A DNA stretch of 64,000 nt from an uncultured candidate division Zixibacteria bacterium (lineage in GTDB: Bacteria; Zixibacteria; MSB-5A5; UBA10806), in assembly GCA_963817915.1 (NCBI GenBank), contig CAWFQL010000017.1, positions 352,001 to 416,000 of the forward strand, written 5' to 3'. Positions 2,465-62,066 of this stretch are shown here, piece by piece; the stretch's first letter is position 1; every line of letters starts with the position of its first letter. The notes under the pieces are model-generated. The model was given only the letters and a program-made list of their open reading frames with translations. It did not search any database and was not told the origin of the DNA. The position numbers were made by a program, and so were the translations under genes.

Positions 2465-3722
2465 TTTCGCTACGGAATTGCGTTATTTTTATAGCGATAA
2501 TCTCTTATCCCCAAATTTAGTCAATCATTGTTTCGCCTATTTATCTGCCGTGATAGGCGTGAAATTCAAAATAGATAATGAAAATCCTCAAATTTATAAG
2601 AATAATAATATTAGTCCTCCCGATTCCGTCGTCCTTAATTATAATGAATTTGATAATGGCTCTTATGATATCATATCTATTCTTGCCGACAAGATGACAT
2701 TATCACTGAAGCAAGGACCATTTGCTAATTCCGAAACTCCTGCCGATTATAAGTCCGGCCCCGGATTAAGCCGATTAATATGGGACTTCAAAAAGAAATT
2801 GTTTGAAGTCGGCGCGATAACAAAGCAAGAAAGTATGACAAAATTCTGGCCAAATGACTATAAATTTGGAGTAGCCCTGACTCATGATGTAGACATAGCC
2901 CGAAGAACAATTAAAGGCGGTATCCGTCTGCTATATAAAAAAAGTGTCAAGGGCGGCTTATCCGCTCTTGTCGATTCCTGCTTCGCGCCGATTAAAGGGC
3001 GAGGGAATCCCTATGACGCAATTGGCAAATGGATAACGATCGAAAAAGATCTGAAATTAAAATCCACATTTTATATATTTGCGGGAAATCGCCTATTCGA
3101 AAATGATCCAGTTTACAATCTTAATATATTGTCCGACCGCATAGCTGAGCTTAAAGAAAATGGTTTCGAAATTGCATTGCACAGCAGTGCCGGCTGCTAT
3201 GATGGGAATCATATTCCGGAAGCTCAAGGACAATTATCAGATTATTGCGGAAATAGTATCGACGGAATTCGGCCGCATTACATGTCCGCATTTCTTCCTG
3301 AGTTTTGGCGTGCGATCGAAAAATCTGGGTTCTCGTATTCTTCATGCCTTGGCTCAGATCAGTCGATAGGTTTCTTTAGGGGAATAGATCTTCCTTTCGT
3401 TCCATTTGACAGAGAACGGGATCGGGCTCTGAATATTGTTGAAATCCCGCTGGCAATTATGGATTGCGGATTGATAGGGGGCACGACCGCGAATGAAGAT
3501 AGCGTTTTCGACCGGGCGAAACTGCTGATTAATGATACATCGAATTCCGGAGGACTAATAGTATTGGATTGGCACCAGAGGACGTTGTATGAACGCGATT
3601 TCCCAGGCTGGGGAAATCTATTTATAAAAATTGTCGAATATATGAAGGATAATGGCGCATATTTTGGAACCATGAGCGAAATATCTAAGCTGGTAAAATC
3701 AAGAATGAGCGGCGAATTTTGA
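2451..3722 (+). CDS. CE4/NodB-type polysaccharide deacetylase (VimE-like)
   Basis: 'ALTHDVD', 'STFY', 'FEIALHSS', 'GIRPHYM', 'EIPLAIMD', 'LDWHQ' motifs. Confidence 0.8.
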   Translation: MQGTNFATELRYFYSDNLLSPNLVNHCFAYLSAVIGVKFKIDNENPQIYKNNNISPPDSVVLNYNEFDNGSYDIISILADKMTLSLKQGPFANSETPADYKSGPGLSRLIWDFKKKLFEVGAITKQESMTKFWPNDYKFGVALTHDVDIARRTIKGGIRLLYKKSVKGGLSALVDSCFAPIKGRGNPYDAIGKWITIEKDLKLKSTFYIFAGNRLFENDPVYNLNILSDRIAELKENGFEIALHSSAGCYDGNHIPEAQGQLSDYCGNSIDGIRPHYMSAFLPEFWRAIEKSGFSYSSCLGSDQSIGFFRGIDLPFVPFDRERDRALNIVEIPLAIMDCGLIGGTTANEDSVFDRAKLLINDTSNSGGLIVLDWHQRTLYERDFPGWGNLFIKIVEYMKDNGAYFGTMSEISKLVKSRMSGEF

Positions 3723-4840
3723 AAATAGTCTACTTTATATTAAATAGTTTTGATTTTGATTCTCGGGCAAGGCTTGAAGTGGAAGCGCTTAAGACTGCAG
3801 GGCATCAAGTCGAAATAATCGCCACTACCGGATGCGAATCAAATCATTACCTGGATTGCCCGATTCATCGAATTCCCCAATGGACATGGCCATCGAGAAA
3901 AATGCGTTTTATTCAATACAATATTTTGGCGGCCTTAAAAGCGATAAAAATTAAGCCGGATGCTTATCATGCGGTAGATTTGGATACGCTGCGCGCCGCA
4001 ACTTGGGCCTGCTCTAGAACCGGTGGTAAGGTAATCTATGAATCCCGAGAATTGTATACCGAAATCGAAGCCCTGAATGGCAGGCCATTTATCAGAGGAA
4101 TATGGCGAAGGCTCGAAACCCGATTGATAATAAAGGCGGCGAGGGTTATTACTGTTAACGATTCTATCGGCCGCGAATTGGTATCGAGATACTCGATAAT
4201 ATTCCCAAATATAATAAGAAATGTCGCTCCGAAGCCGGGCAGTCTCAGACCAATAAATTTGCATTCGAAATATAATATTCCCGCAGGGTGGAAAATATTG
4301 GTTTTCCAAGGTATATTAAGAAATGGACAGGGACTTTTAAAGCTACTCGAGATGATCAAGAGTATGGAGAGAGTATCGCTGGTAATTATTGGTGATGGGC
4401 CATTAATGAATGTTCTAAAAGACAGGGCCAGGAGTCTGAGCATTGAAAATAAAATTCGATTTACCGGGATGATTCCAGCAGCTGAGTTGCTTAATTACAC
4501 GGCAGGTGCCGATGCTGGAATGCTGCTACTGGAAGATGTTTCCATAAATCACAGACTGGCGTTGCCGCAAAAATTGTTTCAGTATTTGATGGCCGGAATT
4601 CCACAAATTGTTTCGCCGCTGCCTGAGTTGGCAGGTTTTGTCAGTTCCGAGAAGACCGGGTTTGTAGCATCCTCTGCCAGTCCTGAAATAACCGCACACC
4701 AGATCGATAATTTCCTTTTTAGCCTCGATCAATATAATCAAGCAAAACGAAACTGTATCGAATCCGCGAAAAAACACAATTGGGAGAATGAATCAACTAA
4801 ATTGATAAAAATGTATGAAGAAATGGCTGATTCTCAATGA
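3719..4840 (+). CDS. GT4 glycosyltransferase (VimF-like)
   Basis: 'DSRARLE', 'YHAVDLDTL', 'YESRELY', 'LPQKLFQYLMAGIP', 'NWE'; TTGA start/stop overlap with the upstream gene. Confidence 0.85.
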   Translation: MKIVYFILNSFDFDSRARLEVEALKTAGHQVEIIATTGCESNHYLDCPIHRIPQWTWPSRKMRFIQYNILAALKAIKIKPDAYHAVDLDTLRAATWACSRTGGKVIYESRELYTEIEALNGRPFIRGIWRRLETRLIIKAARVITVNDSIGRELVSRYSIIFPNIIRNVAPKPGSLRPINLHSKYNIPAGWKILVFQGILRNGQGLLKLLEMIKSMERVSLVIIGDGPLMNVLKDRARSLSIENKIRFTGMIPAAELLNYTAGADAGMLLLEDVSINHRLALPQKLFQYLMAGIPQIVSPLPELAGFVSSEKTGFVASSASPEITAHQIDNFLFSLDQYNQAKRNCIESAKKHNWENESTKLIKMYEEMADSQ

Positions 4841-5772
4841 TTGAATATTCGATAGTAATTTCTACATTTAATCAAAAAAACACGCTTGCGAAGATTCTTG
4901 ATAGTCTTGCCAGGCAGATCTCCAGCCCTAAGATATTTGAAGTTATTATTACCGATGATGGCTCGAACGACGGAACGGATCAATTTATAAAAGGACTCAG
5001 ATTTCCGATTTTTCTAAAATATATCCGTTCTCAAAAAAGTGAAGGTCGTGCCAAAAACCGCAATAAAGGCTTTGAAAAAGCTGTTGGTGTTTGGGTTACA
5101 TTTCTCGATGGCGATATGATTCCAGAGGCGAATTTTATTTCGACCTTGTGGGCGGCATGGAATAGCGACCTGGCTCCTGTTTACGTTGGAAATGTCAAAT
5201 GGCCGAAAGAGTGGCGATCCGGTAGACTCGAAAAATATCTTTATTCAAGAGGCAGATTATCCAACACCGATAAAGGACAAATACCGGGCGTATATTTTAC
5301 AAGTAATAATTTTTCGATCAGGAAAGAAGTCTTCGGAAAACTTGCCGGCTTTGACCCCAAGTTCGAAGGCTGGGGTGGTGAAGATACAGATTTTGGACTT
5401 CGCCTCGAAAAGAACATACATAAGATCTATTATTTGCCAGAGGCGATCTGCTATCATTACCATAAGAGGTCAATTACTGAAGTTGTCAATGATTACAAAA
5501 AATATGGCCAAAATGGGTATTCAAGGCTTATCGCATCCCATCCTGATACCGTAATTTTCAACAATGGATGGCTCCTTGGGCTTCCTGATTCAAAGTACAA
5601 TTTTGGTAGAAGATTATTTTCGTTCATCTTATTCCCACTCAGAACAAGTGCATTTCTGGCATTTTTAAGGGCTATATTTATGATCACGGGATTTCCTCTG
5701 TGTACCAATTTTTGCTTCGACTGGCTATTCTACGGTAACCTTGCTATGGGGTACAGACAAGGCACAAAATGA
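4837..5772 (+). CDS. GT2 glycosyltransferase
   Basis: 'SIVISTFN', 'DDGSND', 'FLDGD', 'GFDPKFEGWGGEDTDFG'. Confidence 0.9.
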   Translation: MIEYSIVISTFNQKNTLAKILDSLARQISSPKIFEVIITDDGSNDGTDQFIKGLRFPIFLKYIRSQKSEGRAKNRNKGFEKAVGVWVTFLDGDMIPEANFISTLWAAWNSDLAPVYVGNVKWPKEWRSGRLEKYLYSRGRLSNTDKGQIPGVYFTSNNFSIRKEVFGKLAGFDPKFEGWGGEDTDFGLRLEKNIHKIYYLPEAICYHYHKRSITEVVNDYKKYGQNGYSRLIASHPDTVIFNNGWLLGLPDSKYNFGRRLFSFILFPLRTSAFLAFLRAIFMITGFPLCTNFCFDWLFYGNLAMGYRQGTK

Positions 5773-6866: not shown

Positions 6867-6874
6867 TATCCGCA

Positions 6875-8183
6875 ATGAAGCTATTAGTCATATCCTCAAG
6901 TTTTCCGAAAACCCCCGGAGACAGCCTGTCCCCATTTGTATGGGATTACTGCAAGGGCCTGAAAAAGCTCGGATGGGATATTACCGTTCTTGTTCCTCAT
7001 AAAAATGGTTTCCCTGAAAATGAAATTTGGGATGATATCAAAATCAAGCGGTTTCGTTACCTGCCCGAGAGATTCGAGACCCTCGGATATGATGCCGGCG
7101 GAATTATCCCGAATCTCAAAAAGAAGCCATGGGTAATTATTAAAATAGCGTTCTATATTCTATCAATGTATAGAGAATCATTGAGACTTGCGGTAGATGA
7201 GGATTTCGATCTTGTTAATTTTCATTGGATTTATCCTAGCGCATTTTGGCTTAACAGCATTTTCTGGAAATGCAACGCGCCGATCGTGATTACGGGGCAT
7301 GGTACCGATATCCATCTCTCACGAAAACCGATTCTGAAATATTTCGCGACAAAAGCTTTTGATAATTCAGCGGCAGTCACTGTTAATAGTGAATATATGA
7401 GTTCAATTTTGAAATCTAATTTTCCATCTGAAAAAATTAAAGTCATTCCCATGGGTATCGATACTTCGAAATTTACTCCGTCGGATATTCCGCCATTCTC
7501 AATCAAGAACAGTTCTGTACGTTGGGAGATTAATTAAGCAAAAAGGGATAAATCTTCTGGTGCAGGCATTTGTCGAAAACTTGCGGCATTATTCTGGCGC
7601 TAAGTTGAAGATTATCGGCTATGGCCCTGAACGAGACTCATTGAAGAAATTTATAGATGATAGCGAGATATCGGATTCCATTGAGATAATCGATTCTATA
7701 GAACATGATAAATTACCCGAAATTTATCGCCAGGCACGAGTACTCGCGTTGCCCAGCCTTATCCCCGAGGGTCTCGGATTGACAGTCGCGGAAGCCGCGG
7801 CCTGCTCGGTTCCTTCAATAACTTTTGGCCTTGGAGGCACCGCTGATTTGGTTATCAATGAAAAGACAGGGTTAATCGTTGATCCAGACGTCAAATCCCT
7901 TTCTGATGGTATCGCAAGATTGATGGGCGACAATAATCTCGTTGACACCATGGGGAAAGATGCCAGGAAATATGTCGTCGATAAATTTGGTTGGGATTCA
8001 TTGGCCGGGAGATTCGATTTATTGTTTAGAGAAATCGTGTCCAATGCCAAAGCCATTAAAGATAAATCTTTTTCGAAATCAGCGAAAATTATGATTTCAT
8101 CGATAATTGTCATTACAGTAGCAGCGTATTTAATTAAAACATTTGTCGATAGAATCGAAAAAATAATTCATATAATGAAATGA
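6875..8183 (+). CDS. GT4 glycosyltransferase, split by a +1 frameshift near 7490-7505 (probably a sequencing indel)
   Basis: ORF 6875-7537 is the N-domain (HW..P, 'TGHGTD', 'VIPMGID'). The frame of ORF 7560-8183 extends upstream as 'RTVLYVGRLIKQKGINLL' and carries 'EGLGLTVAEA'. C-terminal hydrophobic helix. Confidence 0.8.
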
Positions 8184-55574: not shown

Positions 55575-56153
55575 ATGCAGGAGCTCAATGATCACGAATT
55601 AATTGATAGAGCCCTGAACGGCGATAAGGCAGCTTTTGGGATTTTGGTAGATAGATACAAAAAGAAAATCTACTATTTGGCCTATCGCATGACTCGTGAT
55701 CATGATTGCGCCGATGAATTAGCGCAGGAAAGTTTCGTAAAAGCATATCAGGCCCTGGGTACATTTAAGAGGGGCTATAGCTTTTACACCTGGGTTTACA
55801 GAATTTGCATCAATATTACGATTAATTTTATCAAAAGAGAGAAATTTAGCGTTCCCATGGATTCACTCAATGAAACCGAAATCCGTGAAAATACGGCAAT
55901 CGATAACAATCAGCTCGAAAGGCTTATTTCATCTGAGCAGGCTTCGTTAGTTAGAAAGACACTTGATACCCTGCCGCCGGAACAAAAGGCCGCTTTCCTT
56001 CTTAAAACATATGATGATTTGTCGTATGAACAGATTGCGGAAACTATGGGGACATCGATTGGCACGGTTATGTCGAGACTTTTCAGGGCTCGATTCAGGA
56101 TTAAGCAGGCTCTGAAAGATATCGAATCTAAAAGGGATGTGTGGGATGAGTAA
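55575..56153 (+). CDS. ECF RNA polymerase sigma factor
   Basis: 'GDKAAFGILVDRY', 'ADELAQESFVKAY', 'FYTWVYRI..N', 'LSYEQIAETMG.SIGTVMSRLFRAR'. Confidence 0.95.
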   Translation: MQELNDHELIDRALNGDKAAFGILVDRYKKKIYYLAYRMTRDHDCADELAQESFVKAYQALGTFKRGYSFYTWVYRICINITINFIKREKFSVPMDSLNETEIRENTAIDNNQLERLISSEQASLVRKTLDTLPPEQKAAFLLKTYDDLSYEQIAETMGTSIGTVMSRLFRARFRIKQALKDIESKRDVWDE

Positions 56154-57158
56154 ATGTAATAATACAAAGCTGATGCAGATATATCTTGATGGCTGGATGG
56201 GCGAAAGTGAAATCAAGAAATTTGAAGATCATCTGAAGGATTGCCCCGAATGTCAGATGGAGTTGGTGGATCTGGAAGAGGTTACGAGAGCGACTTTGGA
56301 GATCGTAGATCAGGCTCCGGAACGGGAATATTGGGATAATTTTGTCAATCGCGTCAACAATCGCATTGCCGCCCGCGACGTTAGTATGGAGATTTCGTCA
56401 TCCAGGAAAAGTAAATCATTTTCAGTAAAATATTCTTTATACTCGGTTGCTGTTATGGCATTTGCTGCCTCATTACTGATAATTTTCGATATAGGCATCA
56501 ATAAAAAACCGAATCCAAATCAAGCCGCAGACTCTAATCTTTATGCCCCAATTTCGGGAAATCTGCCGCTTATATTTTCCGGCGCGGAGCAGGCATTGCC
56601 TTCAAGCAATTCTAATATAAGCCAAACCCAAGAAGCGTCAATGTACCGCCAACTGAAAATTCCCGTTCGATTATGTCAAAGGCCGCGGAATCGTCGGATT
56701 CATCAGACGAGACAAGCACTCAGGGAGTTAATCCCCAGATAGTTGGCTATCAAAGAAATTTGCCGGGTGGCGTGGGAATAGTAAAGGACTTGAATACTTA
56801 TATCAGAACAAGATCAATAATGCCAAGCGCCAGTATAATGTTGAGCGATATTTCGGTCTCGGATATGCAAACCAGATTGAATTCGGACGACAGGCTTGAT
56901 TCATCATTAAAGTTAAGATTGTCGGTTATTGCCGATAGAATGCTCTCTGGTATCAATAATGTTTCGCGATTGTCCGGCAATGCAGGAAGCTCTTTGCTGA
57001 ATCAGGATTATGCGTATGCCGATCTCAATGGCGGGCGGGCTAATGTCAATGATGCCATTAACACACGTTGGGGTTATTTGAGAATGCCTATTGACACTAC
57101 GAAATCTGCCGACGCCGGAAAATACTTGATCGAACTCGAATTAATGCAAAATAAATAG
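56146..57158 (+). CDS. ZAS (zf-HC2) transmembrane anti-sigma factor, apparently split by a -1 frameshift at about 56620-56645
   Basis: 'C...YLDG...FEDHLKDCPEC' (HxxxCxxC), one TM helix, then a Ser/Asn-rich tail. The frame of ORF 56673-57158 is open back to about 56617 and continues the same low-complexity sequence. Confidence 0.75.
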
Positions 57159-57177
57159 TTGATTTGACTCAAACAGC

Positions 57178-57206
57178 TTGATTATCAAAATATAGTCTCA
57201 TATATT
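57178..57206 (+). promoter_or_regulatory. Sigma70-type promoter of the cap/pgs operon
   Basis: TTGATT (57178-57183), 17 nt, TATATT (57201-57206). Confidence 0.5.
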
Positions 57207-57243
57207 AAGGAACTATCGTCGAAGCGACGATGGTTATTGAAAT

Positions 57244-58416
57244 ATGTGGGTAATTCTTACACTGATTTTAGGGCTAATTTTTTTAGGAATTTGGGAATTC
57301 CGATACCACCAGTATCATCTTGCTCAATTACCTATAAGAGTCCATGTTAATGGCACCAGGGGTAAGTCGTCTGTTACAAGGCTTATTGCAGGCGGGCTTC
57401 GTGGGGGCGGATACAAAGTATTTGCAAAAACGACAGGTACCAAGCCTCGAATGATCTATGATGATGGCAGCGAAGAACCCGTTCACAGGGTTGGCAAGCC
57501 CAATGTTATTGAGCAGAAAAAAATCGTTTCCAGAGCCACTCATTTGGGAGTGCAATATTTTGTTACGGAATGCATGGGTGTTCAGCCTCACTTGCAGGAT
57601 ATTCTCGAAAGGCAATTTATTAAAGCGCAAGTCGGCGTTATTACCAACGCGCGTGCCGATCATCTCGACATGATGGGTCCAACGGTTGAGGATGTCGCCG
57701 AATCACTCGCCAATACAGTGCCACGCAACGGCATTTTATTTACCGCGGAAAAACAATATTTCAATATATTGAAAGAAAGAGCGGAAAAGAGAAATTCCGG
57801 CATTCATCTGGCCGAAGGCCACGTGATTACTGATGATGAGATGCGCGGTTTTTCTTATCTTGAGCATAAAGACAATGTTGCCCTGGCACTAAAAGTCTGC
57901 GAGCATCTCGGGGTGGATAGAAAATCTGCGATTAAGGGGATGCAGGACGCCAATCCCGATCCGGGCGTATTGAGGCGTTACCAGATAATTTCGCAGGGAA
58001 AATCAATAGAGTTCGTCAATGCTTTTGCCGCCAATGATCCCGATAGTTTTAAGGTAATCTGGGAAATGCTAAAAATTCATCATGAGCCCAATAAGACATT
58101 GATTGTACTTGTAAATTCACGACAGGACAGGATTCAGCGGGCCGAACAATTGGGCGAATTTATAGCGTCTAATCTAAGCGCTGATTTTTATGTCATTACC
58201 GGCCAGAATACTCATCCGCTGGTTGCCAAGGCCATTGCCTGCGGATTACCTCATAATAAGATCGAGGACATGGGCGGGCGAACAATTGAATCTATCTTTA
58301 ATAGTATTGTCAACCTATCCGCGGAAAAAGCGTTGGTTTTTGGAATCGGAAATATAGTCGGTTTCGGAGAACAGCTAGTGCAATTCTTTACTGAAAGGGG
58401 TAGCGAGATTGTCTGA
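57244..58416 (+). CDS. pgsB: Poly-gamma-glutamate synthase CapB/PgsB (Mur-ligase fold)
   Basis: N-terminal TM, 'IRVHVNGTRGKSSVTRLI', 'AKTTGT', 'NVIEQ', 'ECMGVQP.LQ', 'ITNARADHLD.MGPT', 'NAFAANDP', 'GIGNI.G.G'. Confidence 0.93.
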   Translation: MWVILTLILGLIFLGIWEFRYHQYHLAQLPIRVHVNGTRGKSSVTRLIAGGLRGGGYKVFAKTTGTKPRMIYDDGSEEPVHRVGKPNVIEQKKIVSRATHLGVQYFVTECMGVQPHLQDILERQFIKAQVGVITNARADHLDMMGPTVEDVAESLANTVPRNGILFTAEKQYFNILKERAEKRNSGIHLAEGHVITDDEMRGFSYLEHKDNVALALKVCEHLGVDRKSAIKGMQDANPDPGVLRRYQIISQGKSIEFVNAFAANDPDSFKVIWEMLKIHHEPNKTLIVLVNSRQDRIQRAEQLGEFIASNLSADFYVITGQNTHPLVAKAIACGLPHNKIEDMGGRTIESIFNSIVNLSAEKALVFGIGNIVGFGEQLVQFFTERGSEIV

Positions 58417-58876
58417 AGTTGTAGTTATGATGCAATCTGTGGGGCTCGGACTGGTTGTCAGCCTCCTGTGTTCTGAGACTCTCGGACTTGCGGCAGGCGG
58501 AATGGTTGTGCCTGGCTATATGGCTTTAATGATACATGACCCTTTTAAGATCGCGGGTACTATCCTCGTAAGCCTCTTGACCTTTTTCTTAGTTAGAATT
58601 TTTTCGAATTATATTTTTATTTATGGTCGTAGAAGGACAGTGCTTGTCATATTGATCGGCTTTGGTCTGGGATGGCTGGCTCGTGAATATTTCGTATTTA
58701 CTCTGCCATCAGGCAAGATTCTGGAATTTCAGGCTATAGGATTTATTATTCCCGGCCTGATCGCCAATTGGATGGAGCGCCAGGGCGTCATTCAGACATT
58801 GTCAACAATGATTATCGCCGCGGTAGTTGTCAGGCTGCTGCTCATGATCTTTACGGGCGGGAAGGTGATAGTATGA
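58409..58876 (+). CDS. pgsC: Poly-gamma-glutamate biosynthesis membrane protein CapC/PgsC
   Basis: 'E.LGL.AGGMVVPGYMAL', 'IYGRRR', 'IGFIIPGLIANW..RQG...T'. Confidence 0.93.
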   Translation: MSEVVVMMQSVGLGLVVSLLCSETLGLAAGGMVVPGYMALMIHDPFKIAGTILVSLLTFFLVRIFSNYIFIYGRRRTVLVILIGFGLGWLAREYFVFTLPSGKILEFQAIGFIIPGLIANWMERQGVIQTLSTMIIAAVVVRLLLMIFTGGKVIV

Positions 58877-60042
58877 GACCGCGCCCGAATAATCCGTCGA
58901 TAAGGCTTTTGGTATTATTGGCTCTCTTTTCGCTCGTGATTTTTTATTTGGCCGAAGGCACTCTGCAAAAAAAGCCGGCGCCGCATTGGGAACTAAAAAA
59001 CAGAGCAGCGATTTTAGATCAACGAGCGCAGGACGTAATCAGAGAAGAGGTCAAAAAGCTCGGAATCGCCATTGATTATGAGAATGATCCTAATGGAACC
59101 GGCCTTATAGGCGAACAAAATACACTAATTACTACAGATGTTGGCGAACTCCGCAGCAAGCTGGCCGCGACAAATCCCAATTTTGCGGCAGTTTTTGTGC
59201 AGATGCTTAAGGATGCCAATGTTAAACGAGGCGACAAAATTGCAGTCTGTATGTCGGGCTCATTTCCCGGCGCGAATATTGCCTTGTTCAGCGCCTGCCA
59301 GGTGATGGGGATTGAACCAGTCGTTATTACTTCGCTTGGATCATCTACCTGGGGTGCGAATAGTCCCGCTCTGACCTGGATTGATATGGAAAGGCTATTA
59401 TATAATGAAAAGATATTTTCATTCCATTCCGTGGCCGCGTCGTTCGGCGGCGGAAATGATAACGGGCGCGGGCTTTCCGTAAAAGGACGAATGCTTCTAC
59501 ATGAATCAATCAAACGGGATAACATGCCTCTGATTTTCAGCGGCAATCTCGATAGTCTTTTCCAATCCGGTGGAACACTCAGGCAAAATATCGATAAACG
59601 TATGGAGATATTCGATCAGTATAAAAAGGGAATAGAGTATGCCGCTTATGTTAATATAGGAGGCGGTCTGGCATCCCTGGGTTCGTCCCAAAATGGCAGG
59701 CTGATTCCGTCGGGCGTTAATTTCGATCTTTTCAATAAAAATTTCCCTGTTCGAGGCATTATCAATATGATGGCCGAACGGAAAATCCCGGTTATTCATG
59801 TTCTAAGACTGACCGAAATCGCTCACCAGTACGGTTTGTCTCGCGATATTGTTCCAGCGCCGATTGTTGGCGAAGACAAAATATTTTTCAAAGATGAATA
59901 TTCCATAGTTCTGACAACCATCTATGCTTTTGTCTTGATAGCTTTTGTTGTGATCGCAATAAGATTCGATGTTAAATACTATATTAAAAAACAAACCAGA
60001 GTGTTTTTCCCCCCGCGGAAAGAAGAAGATCCGGAGATGTAA
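58873..60042 (+). CDS. pgsW: Poly-gamma-glutamate system protein (PgsW-type)
   Basis: ATGA overlap with capC; N- and C-terminal TM helices; 'DPNGTGLIG', 'ITT..G.L.SK..ATNPNFAA', 'SGSFPGAN', 'SLGSSTWGAN', 'YVNIGG', 'IPVIH'. Confidence 0.8.
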   Translation: MRPRPNNPSIRLLVLLALFSLVIFYLAEGTLQKKPAPHWELKNRAAILDQRAQDVIREEVKKLGIAIDYENDPNGTGLIGEQNTLITTDVGELRSKLAATNPNFAAVFVQMLKDANVKRGDKIAVCMSGSFPGANIALFSACQVMGIEPVVITSLGSSTWGANSPALTWIDMERLLYNEKIFSFHSVAASFGGGNDNGRGLSVKGRMLLHESIKRDNMPLIFSGNLDSLFQSGGTLRQNIDKRMEIFDQYKKGIEYAAYVNIGGGLASLGSSQNGRLIPSGVNFDLFNKNFPVRGIINMMAERKIPVIHVLRLTEIAHQYGLSRDIVPAPIVGEDKIFFKDEYSIVLTTIYAFVLIAFVVIAIRFDVKYYIKKQTRVFFPPRKEEDPEM

Positions 60043-60043
60043 T

Positions 60044-60955
60044 ATGAAGCGATTTGTGTTGATGAATATTATTTTCCTGTTTTTGGCTGCAAGCCTATCT
60101 TTTGGCGCGCCTAAAAAGACTGTAAAGTATCACGCGTTTGCGCCTCGAGGTGTAGGAAAGGCCGTATTCTTGAAAGCGGGTGCCAAGAGCTATGGGTATT
60201 TCGAGGTTGTCAAGGGTAAGACCATTGATTTCGAATTAATGGGACCTACCAAGATCAAAATTACAAGCAGAGCCGAATTACGTCCCAATTCCAAAAATTC
60301 CGAATATCAGATGCAAATTTGGGAAGGTGATAGTCTTAGGGTAGGGCGTAAAGCTAAAACTGTGAAATCGGATGTGATAATCGAAGGGCAAAAACTTGAA
60401 ATTGGGCTGGGCCGTTCAGTTGAATTAAGTGTCCCCAAAGGAAAGCATGTTTATCGTCTATGGTTTACCTCTGATAATACTGATAAGTACTATGTCCGTT
60501 TTTATCAGGAAGTGAAGACGAAAAAATCATCCAGCATGTTATCTTACAGGCCGCTTGAGTTTAAGAAAAAAGTTACCTTGCCGGTAAATAAAAAATCCAC
60601 CACATATTATTTGGTCGATACAACAGGCGGAGTTTCGGTGACAGTTGTCGGGCCCACCGATCTTATCATATATTGCCGGGTGAATTTCGATCAGAATATG
60701 AAAGGCAATAGCAAATTTACTCTCGAAGTCCTCGAATCCGGAAAAACAGTTACCCAGTTCTCGGAAATCGGCGCACTGGCTCCAAAGCTTTCCTATAAGG
60801 AAATGACAGAAATTATTCCGTCTGACCTTCATAAATTCACATTCAATGTGCCATCTGGAAAGCATATTTATACATTTAGGGAAATCAATTCATCGGCTCC
60901 CAGCCTGGCCGTTAGGTTCAAAATATCGAAAAACGGTATTGGGAAAAAATTATGA
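60044..60955 (+). CDS. Secreted Lys-rich protein made of two homologous beta-rich domains, function unknown
   Basis: Start ATG 60044, 1 nt after the pgsW stop; signal peptide MKRFVLMNIIFLFLAASLSFG; internal duplication with GPT, VP.GKH.Y and VRF each occurring twice. Confidence 0.75.
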   Translation: MKRFVLMNIIFLFLAASLSFGAPKKTVKYHAFAPRGVGKAVFLKAGAKSYGYFEVVKGKTIDFELMGPTKIKITSRAELRPNSKNSEYQMQIWEGDSLRVGRKAKTVKSDVIIEGQKLEIGLGRSVELSVPKGKHVYRLWFTSDNTDKYYVRFYQEVKTKKSSSMLSYRPLEFKKKVTLPVNKKSTTYYLVDTTGGVSVTVVGPTDLIIYCRVNFDQNMKGNSKFTLEVLESGKTVTQFSEIGALAPKLSYKEMTEIIPSDLHKFTFNVPSGKHIYTFREINSSAPSLAVRFKISKNGIGKKL

Positions 60956-60956
60956 T

Positions 60957-62030
60957 TTGGAATTATTCGTTGAAAAAAATCGGCTTGTATGTGTTGTCGC
61001 CTTTTTGATGGTTGGTATATTAATTTCTCCGGCAAACGCTCAGAAGAAAAAGAAGAGCTCGGCGAAAGCCTCAACGACGAAATTATTTTCACTGAATACT
61101 GATATCGGATTAGCTTACGACGATAATGTTATCAATTATTCCGAAGCCGATCTGGGGCTTATTGGTGATTCAACAAAAGCCGGCAAATTTGCCATCAAGT
61201 CAAAAAATGACTGGATAACTACTATTAAAATTCAGCCTCAGATCAAGAGCAAGCTTTTATTTGGCCGTACCGCCTGGGTTGATGCTTCCTTCGAATATTT
61301 TTTCTATTTTCGAAATGATGTCAGACGCTATTCGAAGCTTTCAATTAGCGGCCGCCAGTATGTTATTCCAGGCGGCTATGTTGACCTGACTTATGCGTAT
61401 GTGCCAAATTACTATTATCGCAATTACCTGAAAAACTCGATTTGGATGCAGGCAAAATTCAAGAAGCATTATATAAAGCTCGAAACAGGTTATCAGGTTA
61501 CGAAAGAACTCAAGGCTGATTTGGCTTATATTTTCCAAAATAGAATATTCAACAGCGAATTTACCGAGCGAAATACCAAATCCAACTTAGTAACTGCCGG
61601 CATTGATTATTTATTCACCAAGCAATTTAAGGCGTCAATAATCTACGATTTCGAAAGCGCAATCGCGAATGGAGCCAACAATCCGGATCCGAATGTTATA
61701 GATGTCTCTTATGACGCCTGGGATATATCATTGGGATTGAGACATTACAGCCCGCTATTTGGCCATACCAATCCCGAGGTTTACGGCGTTTTCCAATATC
61801 GTAAAATAAAATTTCAATCGATAAAAGTCCGAGATGAATTTCGATTCGGACGCAATGACAATAATTATCAATTTCGATTGGGCGCTTCCGCTCAACTATT
61901 TTATGGTGTCCGAACCGGTTTGGAATACAAAGCTCAGAAAAAGAGAGCCGACATGTTTTTTTCGTCGCGCGAACCTGAAATCAATTATAATTCCAATACA
62001 ATCTCGATCGATTTCAGCCGAACTTTCTAA
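60957..62030 (+). CDS. Outer-membrane beta-barrel protein
   Basis: Signal peptide ending 'SPANA'; alternating hydrophobic/aromatic strands; 'IGLAYDDNV'; C-terminal 'ISIDFSRTF'. Start is TTG 60957, or ATG 60952 if the A-run at 60973-60979 lacks a base. Confidence 0.75.
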   Translation: MELFVEKNRLVCVVAFLMVGILISPANAQKKKKSSAKASTTKLFSLNTDIGLAYDDNVINYSEADLGLIGDSTKAGKFAIKSKNDWITTIKIQPQIKSKLLFGRTAWVDASFEYFFYFRNDVRRYSKLSISGRQYVIPGGYVDLTYAYVPNYYYRNYLKNSIWMQAKFKKHYIKLETGYQVTKELKADLAYIFQNRIFNSEFTERNTKSNLVTAGIDYLFTKQFKASIIYDFESAIANGANNPDPNVIDVSYDAWDISLGLRHYSPLFGHTNPEVYGVFQYRKIKFQSIKVRDEFRFGRNDNNYQFRLGASAQLFYGVRTGLEYKAQKKRADMFFSSREPEINYNSNTISIDFSRTF

Positions 62031-62037
62031 TTGCAGC

Positions 62038-62066
62038 TTGACCTTATCCTAATTCGCCTATATATT
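62038..62066 (+). promoter_or_regulatory. Sigma70-type promoter of pcm
   Basis: TTGACC (62038-62043), 17 nt, TATATT (62061-62066). Confidence 0.6.

Follow-up and report, generated by a model that had tools for sequence, protein, structure and literature searches.

How does poly-γ-glutamate (PGA), an unbranched polyanionic polypeptide, leave a cell that is surrounded by an outer membrane? No description of this exit was found in the literature, and the question is raised by a locus on contig CAWFQL010000017.1 from an uncultured Zixibacteria bacterium, in which the genes of a PGA synthase system are followed by two genes for predicted envelope proteins that we call g4 and g5. We analysed a 64,000-nucleotide stretch of this contig, referred to below as the window, by combining translations of open reading frames (ORFs), family models, comparative genomics and predicted folds. 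This led us to conclude that the five-gene unit is real and widespread, that the linkage of its parts is solid, and that the function proposed for it below is plausible. The five ORFs lie consecutively on the + strand between 57244 and 62030, with no promoter-sized space between them, and are as follows.

57244-58416, + strand: pgsB/capB, PGA synthase (Mur-ligase-like amide ligase), 390 aa (TIGR04012, Mur_ligase_M)
58427 (ATG)-58876, + strand: pgsC/capC, membrane subunit, 149 aa (TIGR04011, PF14102)
58873-60042, + strand: TIGR04332 "poly-gamma-glutamate system protein" (PgsW), 389 aa (TIGR04332)
60044-60955, + strand: g4, secreted, very basic protein with two duplicated jelly-roll domains resembling carbohydrate-binding modules (CBMs), 303 aa (predicted fold, charge)
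60957 (TTG)-62030, + strand: g5, predicted 14-stranded outer-membrane β-barrel with a C-terminal F, 357 aa (predicted fold)

The published background on this question is limited. According to the accessible part of one survey of capsule systems (PMC5542703), PGA loci occur in most phyla and are modelled on CapABCDE with no outer-membrane part, and in diderms the passage through the outer membrane calls for one or more additional proteins. The reference list of another paper (PMC4928254) credits Fusobacterium nucleatum with being the first PGA producer among Gram-negatives, a 2026 review (PMC13721041) covers, in its accessible part, the Bacillus pathway only, and the outer membrane goes unmentioned in the accessible parts of two reviews. 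Our literature search, whose coverage did not extend to subscription journals and supplements, returned no description of the five-gene module or of TIGR04332/PgsW, in agreement with the initial annotation, to which no described system of this composition was known, and among the matches listed there was no pairing of Zixibacteria with PGA.

Five genes inherited, moved and lost together

By their family models, the first three genes belong with the PGA synthase systems, as a TIGR04332 variant without PgsA. PgsB scores 469.3 bits against TIGR04012 of NCBIfam (cut-off 222.7), with an alignment that covers profile positions 1-380 of 380, and also matches Mur_ligase_M of Pfam. PgsC scores 131.2 bits against TIGR04011 (cut-off 96.45) and 124.2 against PF14102 (cut-off 27), and the protein encoded by the adjoining gene scores 317.2 bits against TIGR04332 (cut-off 100). 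The identification of these genes as capB, capC and pgsW is therefore borne out by matches above curated cut-offs; the name "PgsW" was not found in the literature, TIGR04332's own name being gamma_Glu_sys. As read from its translation, the TIGR04332 protein has hydrophobic segments at the N and C termini with a large middle domain between them, and a sequence profile search of the PDB with this protein gave 0 matches at E ≤ 1. On the showing of the family models, PgsB and PgsC carry out glutamate polymerisation at the inner membrane, and the TIGR04332 protein occupies the place of PgsA/CapA in Bacillus. The host is a diderm, as initially proposed, its 3.33-Mb genome (93.9% complete) encoding BamA (483.3 bits) and LpxC (266.9 bits). 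The same genome contains 0 matches to GGT/CapD (PF01019), and PgsA/CapA (PF09587, PGA_cap) is missing from the locus, the best match in the genome, on another contig, reaching 21.4 bits (cut-off 27). Those relatives of g4, g5 and the TIGR04332 protein that carry a name come from metagenome-assembled genomes (MAGs) of Zixibacteria, with single Chlorobiaceae- and Bacteroidota-labelled MAGs among the relatives of the TIGR04332 protein.

The comparative sequence evidence solidly shows that the five genes travel as a unit, being passed on, relocated, reordered and deleted jointly. In a pattern scan of GTDB, with the g5 alignment as seed and one genome per GTDB species, 20 loci were recovered, 17 of which have the order pgsB-pgsC-pgsW-g4-g5, while a contig start truncates the remaining three within the block; none of the 20 has g5 without the block. 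Within the phylum (285 Zixibacteria genomes), TIGR04332 is present in 50 genomes, and the broadened profiles for g4 and g5 match in 36 and 37 genomes, respectively, counts that we give without statistics because these genomes are kin and not independent samples. Each of the 38 g4 matches is flanked by pgsW and g5, or else is found where a contig breaks off in the pgsW-g5 interval, as in one genome (G248) where g4 is split across the two contigs that carry pgsW and g5. Of the g5 matches, 40 in all, 34 share a contig with pgsW and adjoin it; the remainder comprise two on small contigs whose ends fall inside the block, two remnants of deletions at pgsB, and two tandem paralogues on a single contig of genome G157. 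The 235 genomes without TIGR04332 have no g4 match, and no g5 match except the two deletion remnants. These findings, together with the metagenome linkage, permuted gene order and co-loss described below, uphold the original proposal that the five genes form one conserved unit. As to the concern that homologues of g4 and g5 might lie mostly away from capBC, the matches in Zixibacteria sit at pgs loci or at their remnants, the G157 paralogues excepted.

These paralogues mark the sole place in the phylum where a g5-type barrel is not at a pgs locus. They occupy 3383-4609 and 5006-5569 on the minus strand of a 5.6-kb contig (L042, G157:C183), with no pgs gene near, and adjoin a gene on the opposite strand whose product, of 1070 aa, carries a C-terminal sorting domain for type IX secretion.

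Conserved gene order is weak evidence in families f1 and f2, because synteny there extends beyond the block, with an ECF sigma gene and its anti-sigma gene upstream and pcm downstream (15 of the 20 loci). In other families, the neighbours vary and the block is constant; the genes around it include those for Sortilin/BNR proteins, a TPR/YfiO protein, methyltransferases, pilin-like proteins and a lipoprotein. Over 56 loci, grouping the neighbours by similarity yields 14 clusters for the upstream gene and 23 for the downstream one, figures in which a few permuted loci are mis-assigned. Two of the neighbours may have joined the cassette in particular lineages: a secreted protein of the Sortilin-Vps10/BNR-repeat type (735-850 aa), encoded directly 5' of pgsB in families f3, f9 and f20 (L023, L036-L039, L046, L047), and in f20 a lipoprotein of 429-430 aa with weak cytochrome c matches, which starts 5 nt after g5.

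Metagenomes extend the linkage beyond these relatives. We scanned them with a broad TIGR04332 alignment as seed, confirmed 396 relatives and kept the best 80 of the 396; the ranking was made against Bacteroidota-labelled sequence, and the distant second type of pgs locus discussed below is therefore not represented. Thirty-six of the 42 loci from this set with at least 2.2 kb after pgsW contain both g4 and g5, and g4 is found in 26 of the 27 loci with 400-2199 nt after pgsW. The G+C (GC) content of the metagenome loci with both genes ranges from 36 to 73%, and the cassette is therefore spread far wider than one family. In addition, gene order changes in four high-GC soil contigs. Two have the permuted order g5-pgsB-pgsC-pgsW-g4 (L113, L127), a third reads g5-pgsB-pgsC-pgsW up to the contig end (L119), and in the fourth (L088) a g5-like gene is upstream of pgsC-pgsW, with pgsB not detected and no g4. 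A linkage that survives rearrangement in this way is hard to explain without a shared function.

Loss is equally informative. Of three congeneric genomes, one (G022, locus L045) has an intact five-gene block and the other two have lost it over a span that begins within the first gene and ends within the fifth. In G023 (L043, about 6870-7245), pgsB residues 1-82 abut g5 residues about 301-362, and in G024 (L044, about 4140-4975), pgsB residues 1-229 abut g5 residues 322-363. The flanks of the two remnants are 95% identical and the end points are not nested, which points either to two deletions or to one deletion followed by erosion.

Predicted structures of g4 and g5

Neither g4 nor g5 matches a Pfam or NCBIfam family at E ≤ 0.01, and PDB sequence profile searches gave 0 matches at E ≤ 1 for each. 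Both start with a signal-peptide-like segment, and neither has a lipobox cysteine. The predicted fold of g4 (19 homologues) has a predicted local distance difference test score (pLDDT) of 88.0 and consists of two β-jelly rolls, at residues 25-159 and 164-295, a result that sustains the earlier description of g4 as a secreted two-domain protein. The closest folds for each domain are CBM51, CBM36, CBM35 and CBM6 (Z from 10.2 to 8.2 for each domain, with the best, to CBM51/36/35, at 10.2-8.6), and Foldseek gives an E value of 1.2e-6 to tandem CBM22 and CBM51. The likeness is one of fold, unaccompanied by a Pfam match or a sequence relative in the PDB. The halves of g4 are 24% identical (E 2e-7), indicating an internal duplication, and invariant or near-invariant residues occur at matching sites of the two: R76/R212, P-x-G-x-H at 131-135/270-274, and R152/R291. 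The protein encoded in the window has a net charge of +22 and a pI of 9.8. This is a general property of the family, as 25 homologues drawn from GTDB and metagenomes have a median pI of 9.9 and the pI exceeds 8 in 49 of 55 metagenome homologues. Judging from the model, such a basic tandem binding module would suit a polyanion.

The second protein, g5, is by its predicted fold an outer-membrane β-barrel. Its predicted fold (16 homologues, mean pLDDT 79.8) comprises the signal peptide, a short disordered stretch and then 14 β-strands. Foldseek retrieves outer-membrane barrels only, with OmpG, CymA and porins on top (OmpG at E 4e-10, with a TM-score on the target of 0.69-0.71). An independent structural search places CymA first (4d5b_A, Z 24.8, root-mean-square deviation (rmsd) 3.5 over 280 aligned residues) and OmpG second (2f1c, Z 21.9), ahead of chain F of Bacteroidota BAM complexes (Z about 19) and FadL (Z 17.7), with the polysaccharide porins PgaA (Z 14.7), BcsC (14.4) and PelB (14.2) further down. 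The protein ends in SRTF, and the aligned homologues end in F in 22 of 24 cases, with one W and one L. The claim that the fifth gene encodes a β-barrel thus agrees with the strand count of the model, its nearest folds and the terminal residue. Similarity to CymA and OmpG lies in the predicted monomeric 14-stranded barrel; sequence identity to g5 is only 9-11%, no family model is shared, and both are sugar-uptake channels encoded in sugar-utilisation loci, unlike g5, which is tied to a polymer synthase. Co-folding of g4 (residues 23-303) with g5 (29-357) scored 0.00, which weighs neither for nor against binding.

At E ≤ 0.001, searches for the wider family of g5 returned 999 representative clusters, and at E ≤ 1e-30 the number was 221. 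Some distant relatives (P0134, P0155, P0181, P0154) are fusions to an N-terminal TPR (P0134 and P0155), to a NosD-like right-handed β-helix or to CarboxypepD_reg, and a look-up of clusters for 10 distant relatives produced two names, one of them the unclassified "bacterium AH-315-J21". Among 24 members of the g5 family, PF10082 (BBP2_2) has matches in 8, all below the curated threshold (best E 3.2e-4) and none in the g5 of the window, PF04575 matches one member weakly (E 0.0016), and an NCBIfam scan at E ≤ 1 gave scattered single matches only. Look-alikes in a protein atlas include BBP2_2 and SlipAM clusters, with recognition values below the usual mark, and are a lead only. Immediately after the signal peptide, g5 has a Lys/Arg-rich stretch (61041-61082, residues 29-42) that is kept in families f1, f7, f9, f18 and f20.

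A candidate route across the outer membrane and its rivals

The linkage and the predicted folds make g4 and g5 good candidates for the step that takes PGA across the outer membrane. An export mechanism is the best-supported reading of the pair, ahead of a surface anchor, and on this evidence we would give it about an even chance; we consider the broader proposal, that the locus is a five-gene cassette for making PGA and handling it in a diderm envelope, about equally likely to be right or wrong. In this mechanism, the chain is made by PgsB and PgsC at the inner membrane, and the TIGR04332 protein would expose its large middle domain to the periplasm. There, g4, soluble and strongly basic, would bind the polyanionic chain through its two jelly rolls, each bearing the same conserved Arg, Pro-x-Gly-x-His and Arg positions. 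Finally, g5, as a predicted monomeric 14-stranded channel of the CymA/OmpG type, might let the unbranched chain pass the outer membrane, or hold it there. A stronger version, that the g4-g5 pair is a translocon dedicated to moving a polypeptide capsule or slime polymer through the outer membrane, used across uncultured diderm lineages of 36-73% GC, is advanced tentatively, its chances falling a little short of even. In such a translocon, g4 would be the basic chaperone with tandem jelly rolls and g5 the small pore of 14 strands, an assignment that we make with the same reserve. If true, this would be the first export route of the synthase-dependent type for a non-polysaccharide. If the reading of the locus as a PGA cassette holds, PGA detection rules for diderm genomes could be extended, and PGA production in Gram-negative hosts might gain a secretion part. 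The cassette provides two concrete, conserved candidate genes for the outer-membrane step and, for two protein families that lack a Pfam or NCBIfam model, a lead to function.

Comparison with known systems highlights important similarities and differences. The locus shares with pgsBCA(E)/capBCADE of Bacillus the PgsB and PgsC equivalogs, above cut-offs, and an operon of overlapping or abutting genes. Unlike the Bacillus systems, it has no PgsA/CapA, the genome has no CapD/GGT, no capE was identified, a TIGR04332 protein is in third position with two extra envelope genes after it, and the host has an outer membrane. The parallel is with synthase-dependent exopolysaccharide systems (BcsB/BcsC, AlgK/AlgE, PgaB/PgaA, PelB/PelC), in which one operon encodes a polymerase-translocase of the inner membrane, a polymer-binding part in the periplasm and a barrel in the outer membrane. 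In kind, g4's jelly rolls broadly resemble the carbohydrate-binding domains found in BcsB (5eiy_B, Z 8.7, but rmsd 20.5). If the export reading is right, g4 and g5 would, by analogy, work like the distal half of such a system without being a member of the class. The polymer here is a polypeptide, PDB profile searches found no sequence relation of g4 or g5 to these systems, g5 has 14 strands versus 16-18 in PgaA, BcsC, PelB and AlgE, and Pfam detects no TPR family in g4 or g5, unlike AlgK, PelB, BcsC and PgaA. The analogy with AlgK/AlgE drawn in the initial annotation thus survives in its general logic, a periplasmic part plus a barrel in one operon, and fails in the details, g4 having no TPR and g5 falling short of 16-18 strands.

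Several observations weigh against a role of the pair in export. First, in the accessible part of the study already cited (PMC5542703), capABC alone is reported to have given PGA production in E. coli. Second, 13 Zixibacteria genomes (families f7 and f10) carry a second, divergent type of pgsB-pgsC-pgsW locus, with a pgsB 25-32% identical to that of the window, and profile searches found neither g4 nor g5 in any of them. We examined 12 such loci (L024-L035; genomes G038, G047, G065, G072, G100, G137, G159, G160, G158, G176, G179, G183), which consist of an AstE/AspA-like gene, DUF6305, GGT, pgsBCW, a gene for a secreted giant of 1040-1870 aa with G8 domains and in some cases also dockerin, and in some an Asp/Glu racemase gene. 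No outer-membrane barrel family was found among the neighbours tested at these 12 loci, for which Pfam was applied to L026, L032, L034 and L029 only, the rest being judged by size and shared end motifs. A dedicated pair is thus not needed by every diderm PGA system, and the prediction that homologues of g4 and g5 accompany capB-capC-pgsW is correct for most loci but not for these 13 genomes. Third, the pair is not always complete in the metagenomes: g4 is found without a detectable g5 in 4 of the 42 loci (L051, L107, L117, L126), and neither gene is downstream of pgsW in two (L088, L121), of which L088 has the upstream g5-like gene without g4 and the other has neither. Fourth, the properties of g5 itself are ambiguous. 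A pore for a polyanion is expected to have a clearly positive lining. The lumen-facing charge of g5 is mixed, with about 21 K/R versus about 17 D/E in a crude strand-phase count, several of its invariant residues are acidic, and the polybasic N-terminal stretch is absent in family f2 (L014, L019), for which reason we dropped this tail as a general PGA-binding device. Finally, the wider g5 family, with its 999 clusters and occasional fusions, need not be PGA-specific.

Among the alternatives, the strongest is that g4 and g5 are a surface anchor, in which g5 inserts or translocates g4 to the cell surface in the manner of systems that pair a barrel with cargo encoded next to it, such as Slam/type XI, and the basic g4 holds PGA there as a capsule, a non-covalent counterpart of the covalent anchoring by CapD in Bacillus anthracis. 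The adjacency of g4 and g5 in most loci, the strongly basic character of g4, the lack of GGT/CapD in the host genome, the presence of SlipAM and BBP2_2 clusters among the atlas look-alikes and the 14 strands of g5, which is also the number in Slam barrels, are all consistent with it. However, g5 lacks the N-terminal TPR domain of Slam (PF04575, DUF560), the corresponding family model finds only the single weak match in 24 mentioned above, and g4 has no lipobox and is built of jelly rolls, not of the C-terminal 8-stranded barrel domain of type XI cargo. Moreover, pgsBCW separates g4 from g5 in the permuted loci, and loci with g4 only, as well as one with g5 only, exist. We regard anchoring as unlikely.

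Less likely still, and in our view improbable, is a role in uptake or conditioning, in which a g5 porin and a periplasmic binding protein, g4, would import glutamate, cations or PGA fragments, or would buffer unexported PGA in the periplasm. The nearest solved folds of g5 are indeed uptake channels, g4 resembles ligand-binding modules, and the second locus type has GGT and a racemase instead of the pair, so the accessory genes around pgsBCW vary with metabolism. Nevertheless, the conserved block has no hydrolase, ABC transporter or TonB-type gene, g4 does not have the periplasmic-binding-protein fold, and strict single-copy coupling to the synthase in every context better fits a machine part than a supply line. 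The last alternative, that g4 and g5 are unrelated envelope genes kept beside pgsBCW by inheritance alone, could draw on the extended synteny in f1 and f2 but is already disfavoured and very improbable, because elsewhere the neighbours change and the block stays, the linkage outlasts changes in gene order and holds across loci of 36-73% GC, and neither gene occurs in Zixibacteria genomes without TIGR04332, two g5 remnants excepted.

Junctions, boundaries and the upstream flank

The tight coupling by overlaps or 1-nt gaps described initially is confirmed for three of the four junctions: pgsC and pgsW overlap by 4 nt (ATGA), and pgsW/g4 and g4/g5 are separated by 1 nt each. At the first junction, pgsB and pgsC overlap by 8 nt if pgsC starts at the alternative TTG at 58409, giving 155 aa, and are separated by 10 nt if it starts at the ATG at 58427, from which its relatives align. 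The TTG start of g5 is backed by the aligned N termini of 15 homologues. Two further features concern the ends of the unit.

57164-57206, + strand: two overlapping sigma-70-like matches 5' of pgsB (weak evidence)
62038-62066, + strand: sigma-70-like match after g5 and 5' of pcm (a separate start here is weakly supported)

The sites 5' of pgsB read TTGACT-16-CAAAAT (57164-57191) and TTGATT-17-TATATT (57178-57206), each matching at 9 of 12 positions, and the site 5' of pcm reads TTGACC-17-TATATT, matching at 10 of 12. Position 57178, where the initial annotation begins the unit, belongs to a promoter-like site, as its first hexamer, and a start codon there is ruled out by an in-frame TAG at 57193. 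Promoter-like sites therefore exist where they had been reported, but their number in the region, 29 versus 21.1 ± 5.2 in shuffles, is not above chance, and the same site scan saw no terminator-like site between g5 and pcm. This makes a promoter-bounded unit a weak claim, and we rejected the sigma-70 scan as a means of defining the operon; the boundary of the five-gene unit rests on the comparative sequence evidence.

Upstream of the unit, the anti-sigma gene that comes 3' of the ECF sigma gene (55575-56153) is broken up: two ORFs, 56137-56742 and 56673-57158, overlap and are read in different frames. In relatives, it is a single ORF of 327-330 aa (L003, 3181-4173; L011, 3037-4020), and the split at 56137-57158 is a frameshift, either real or due to an assembly error.

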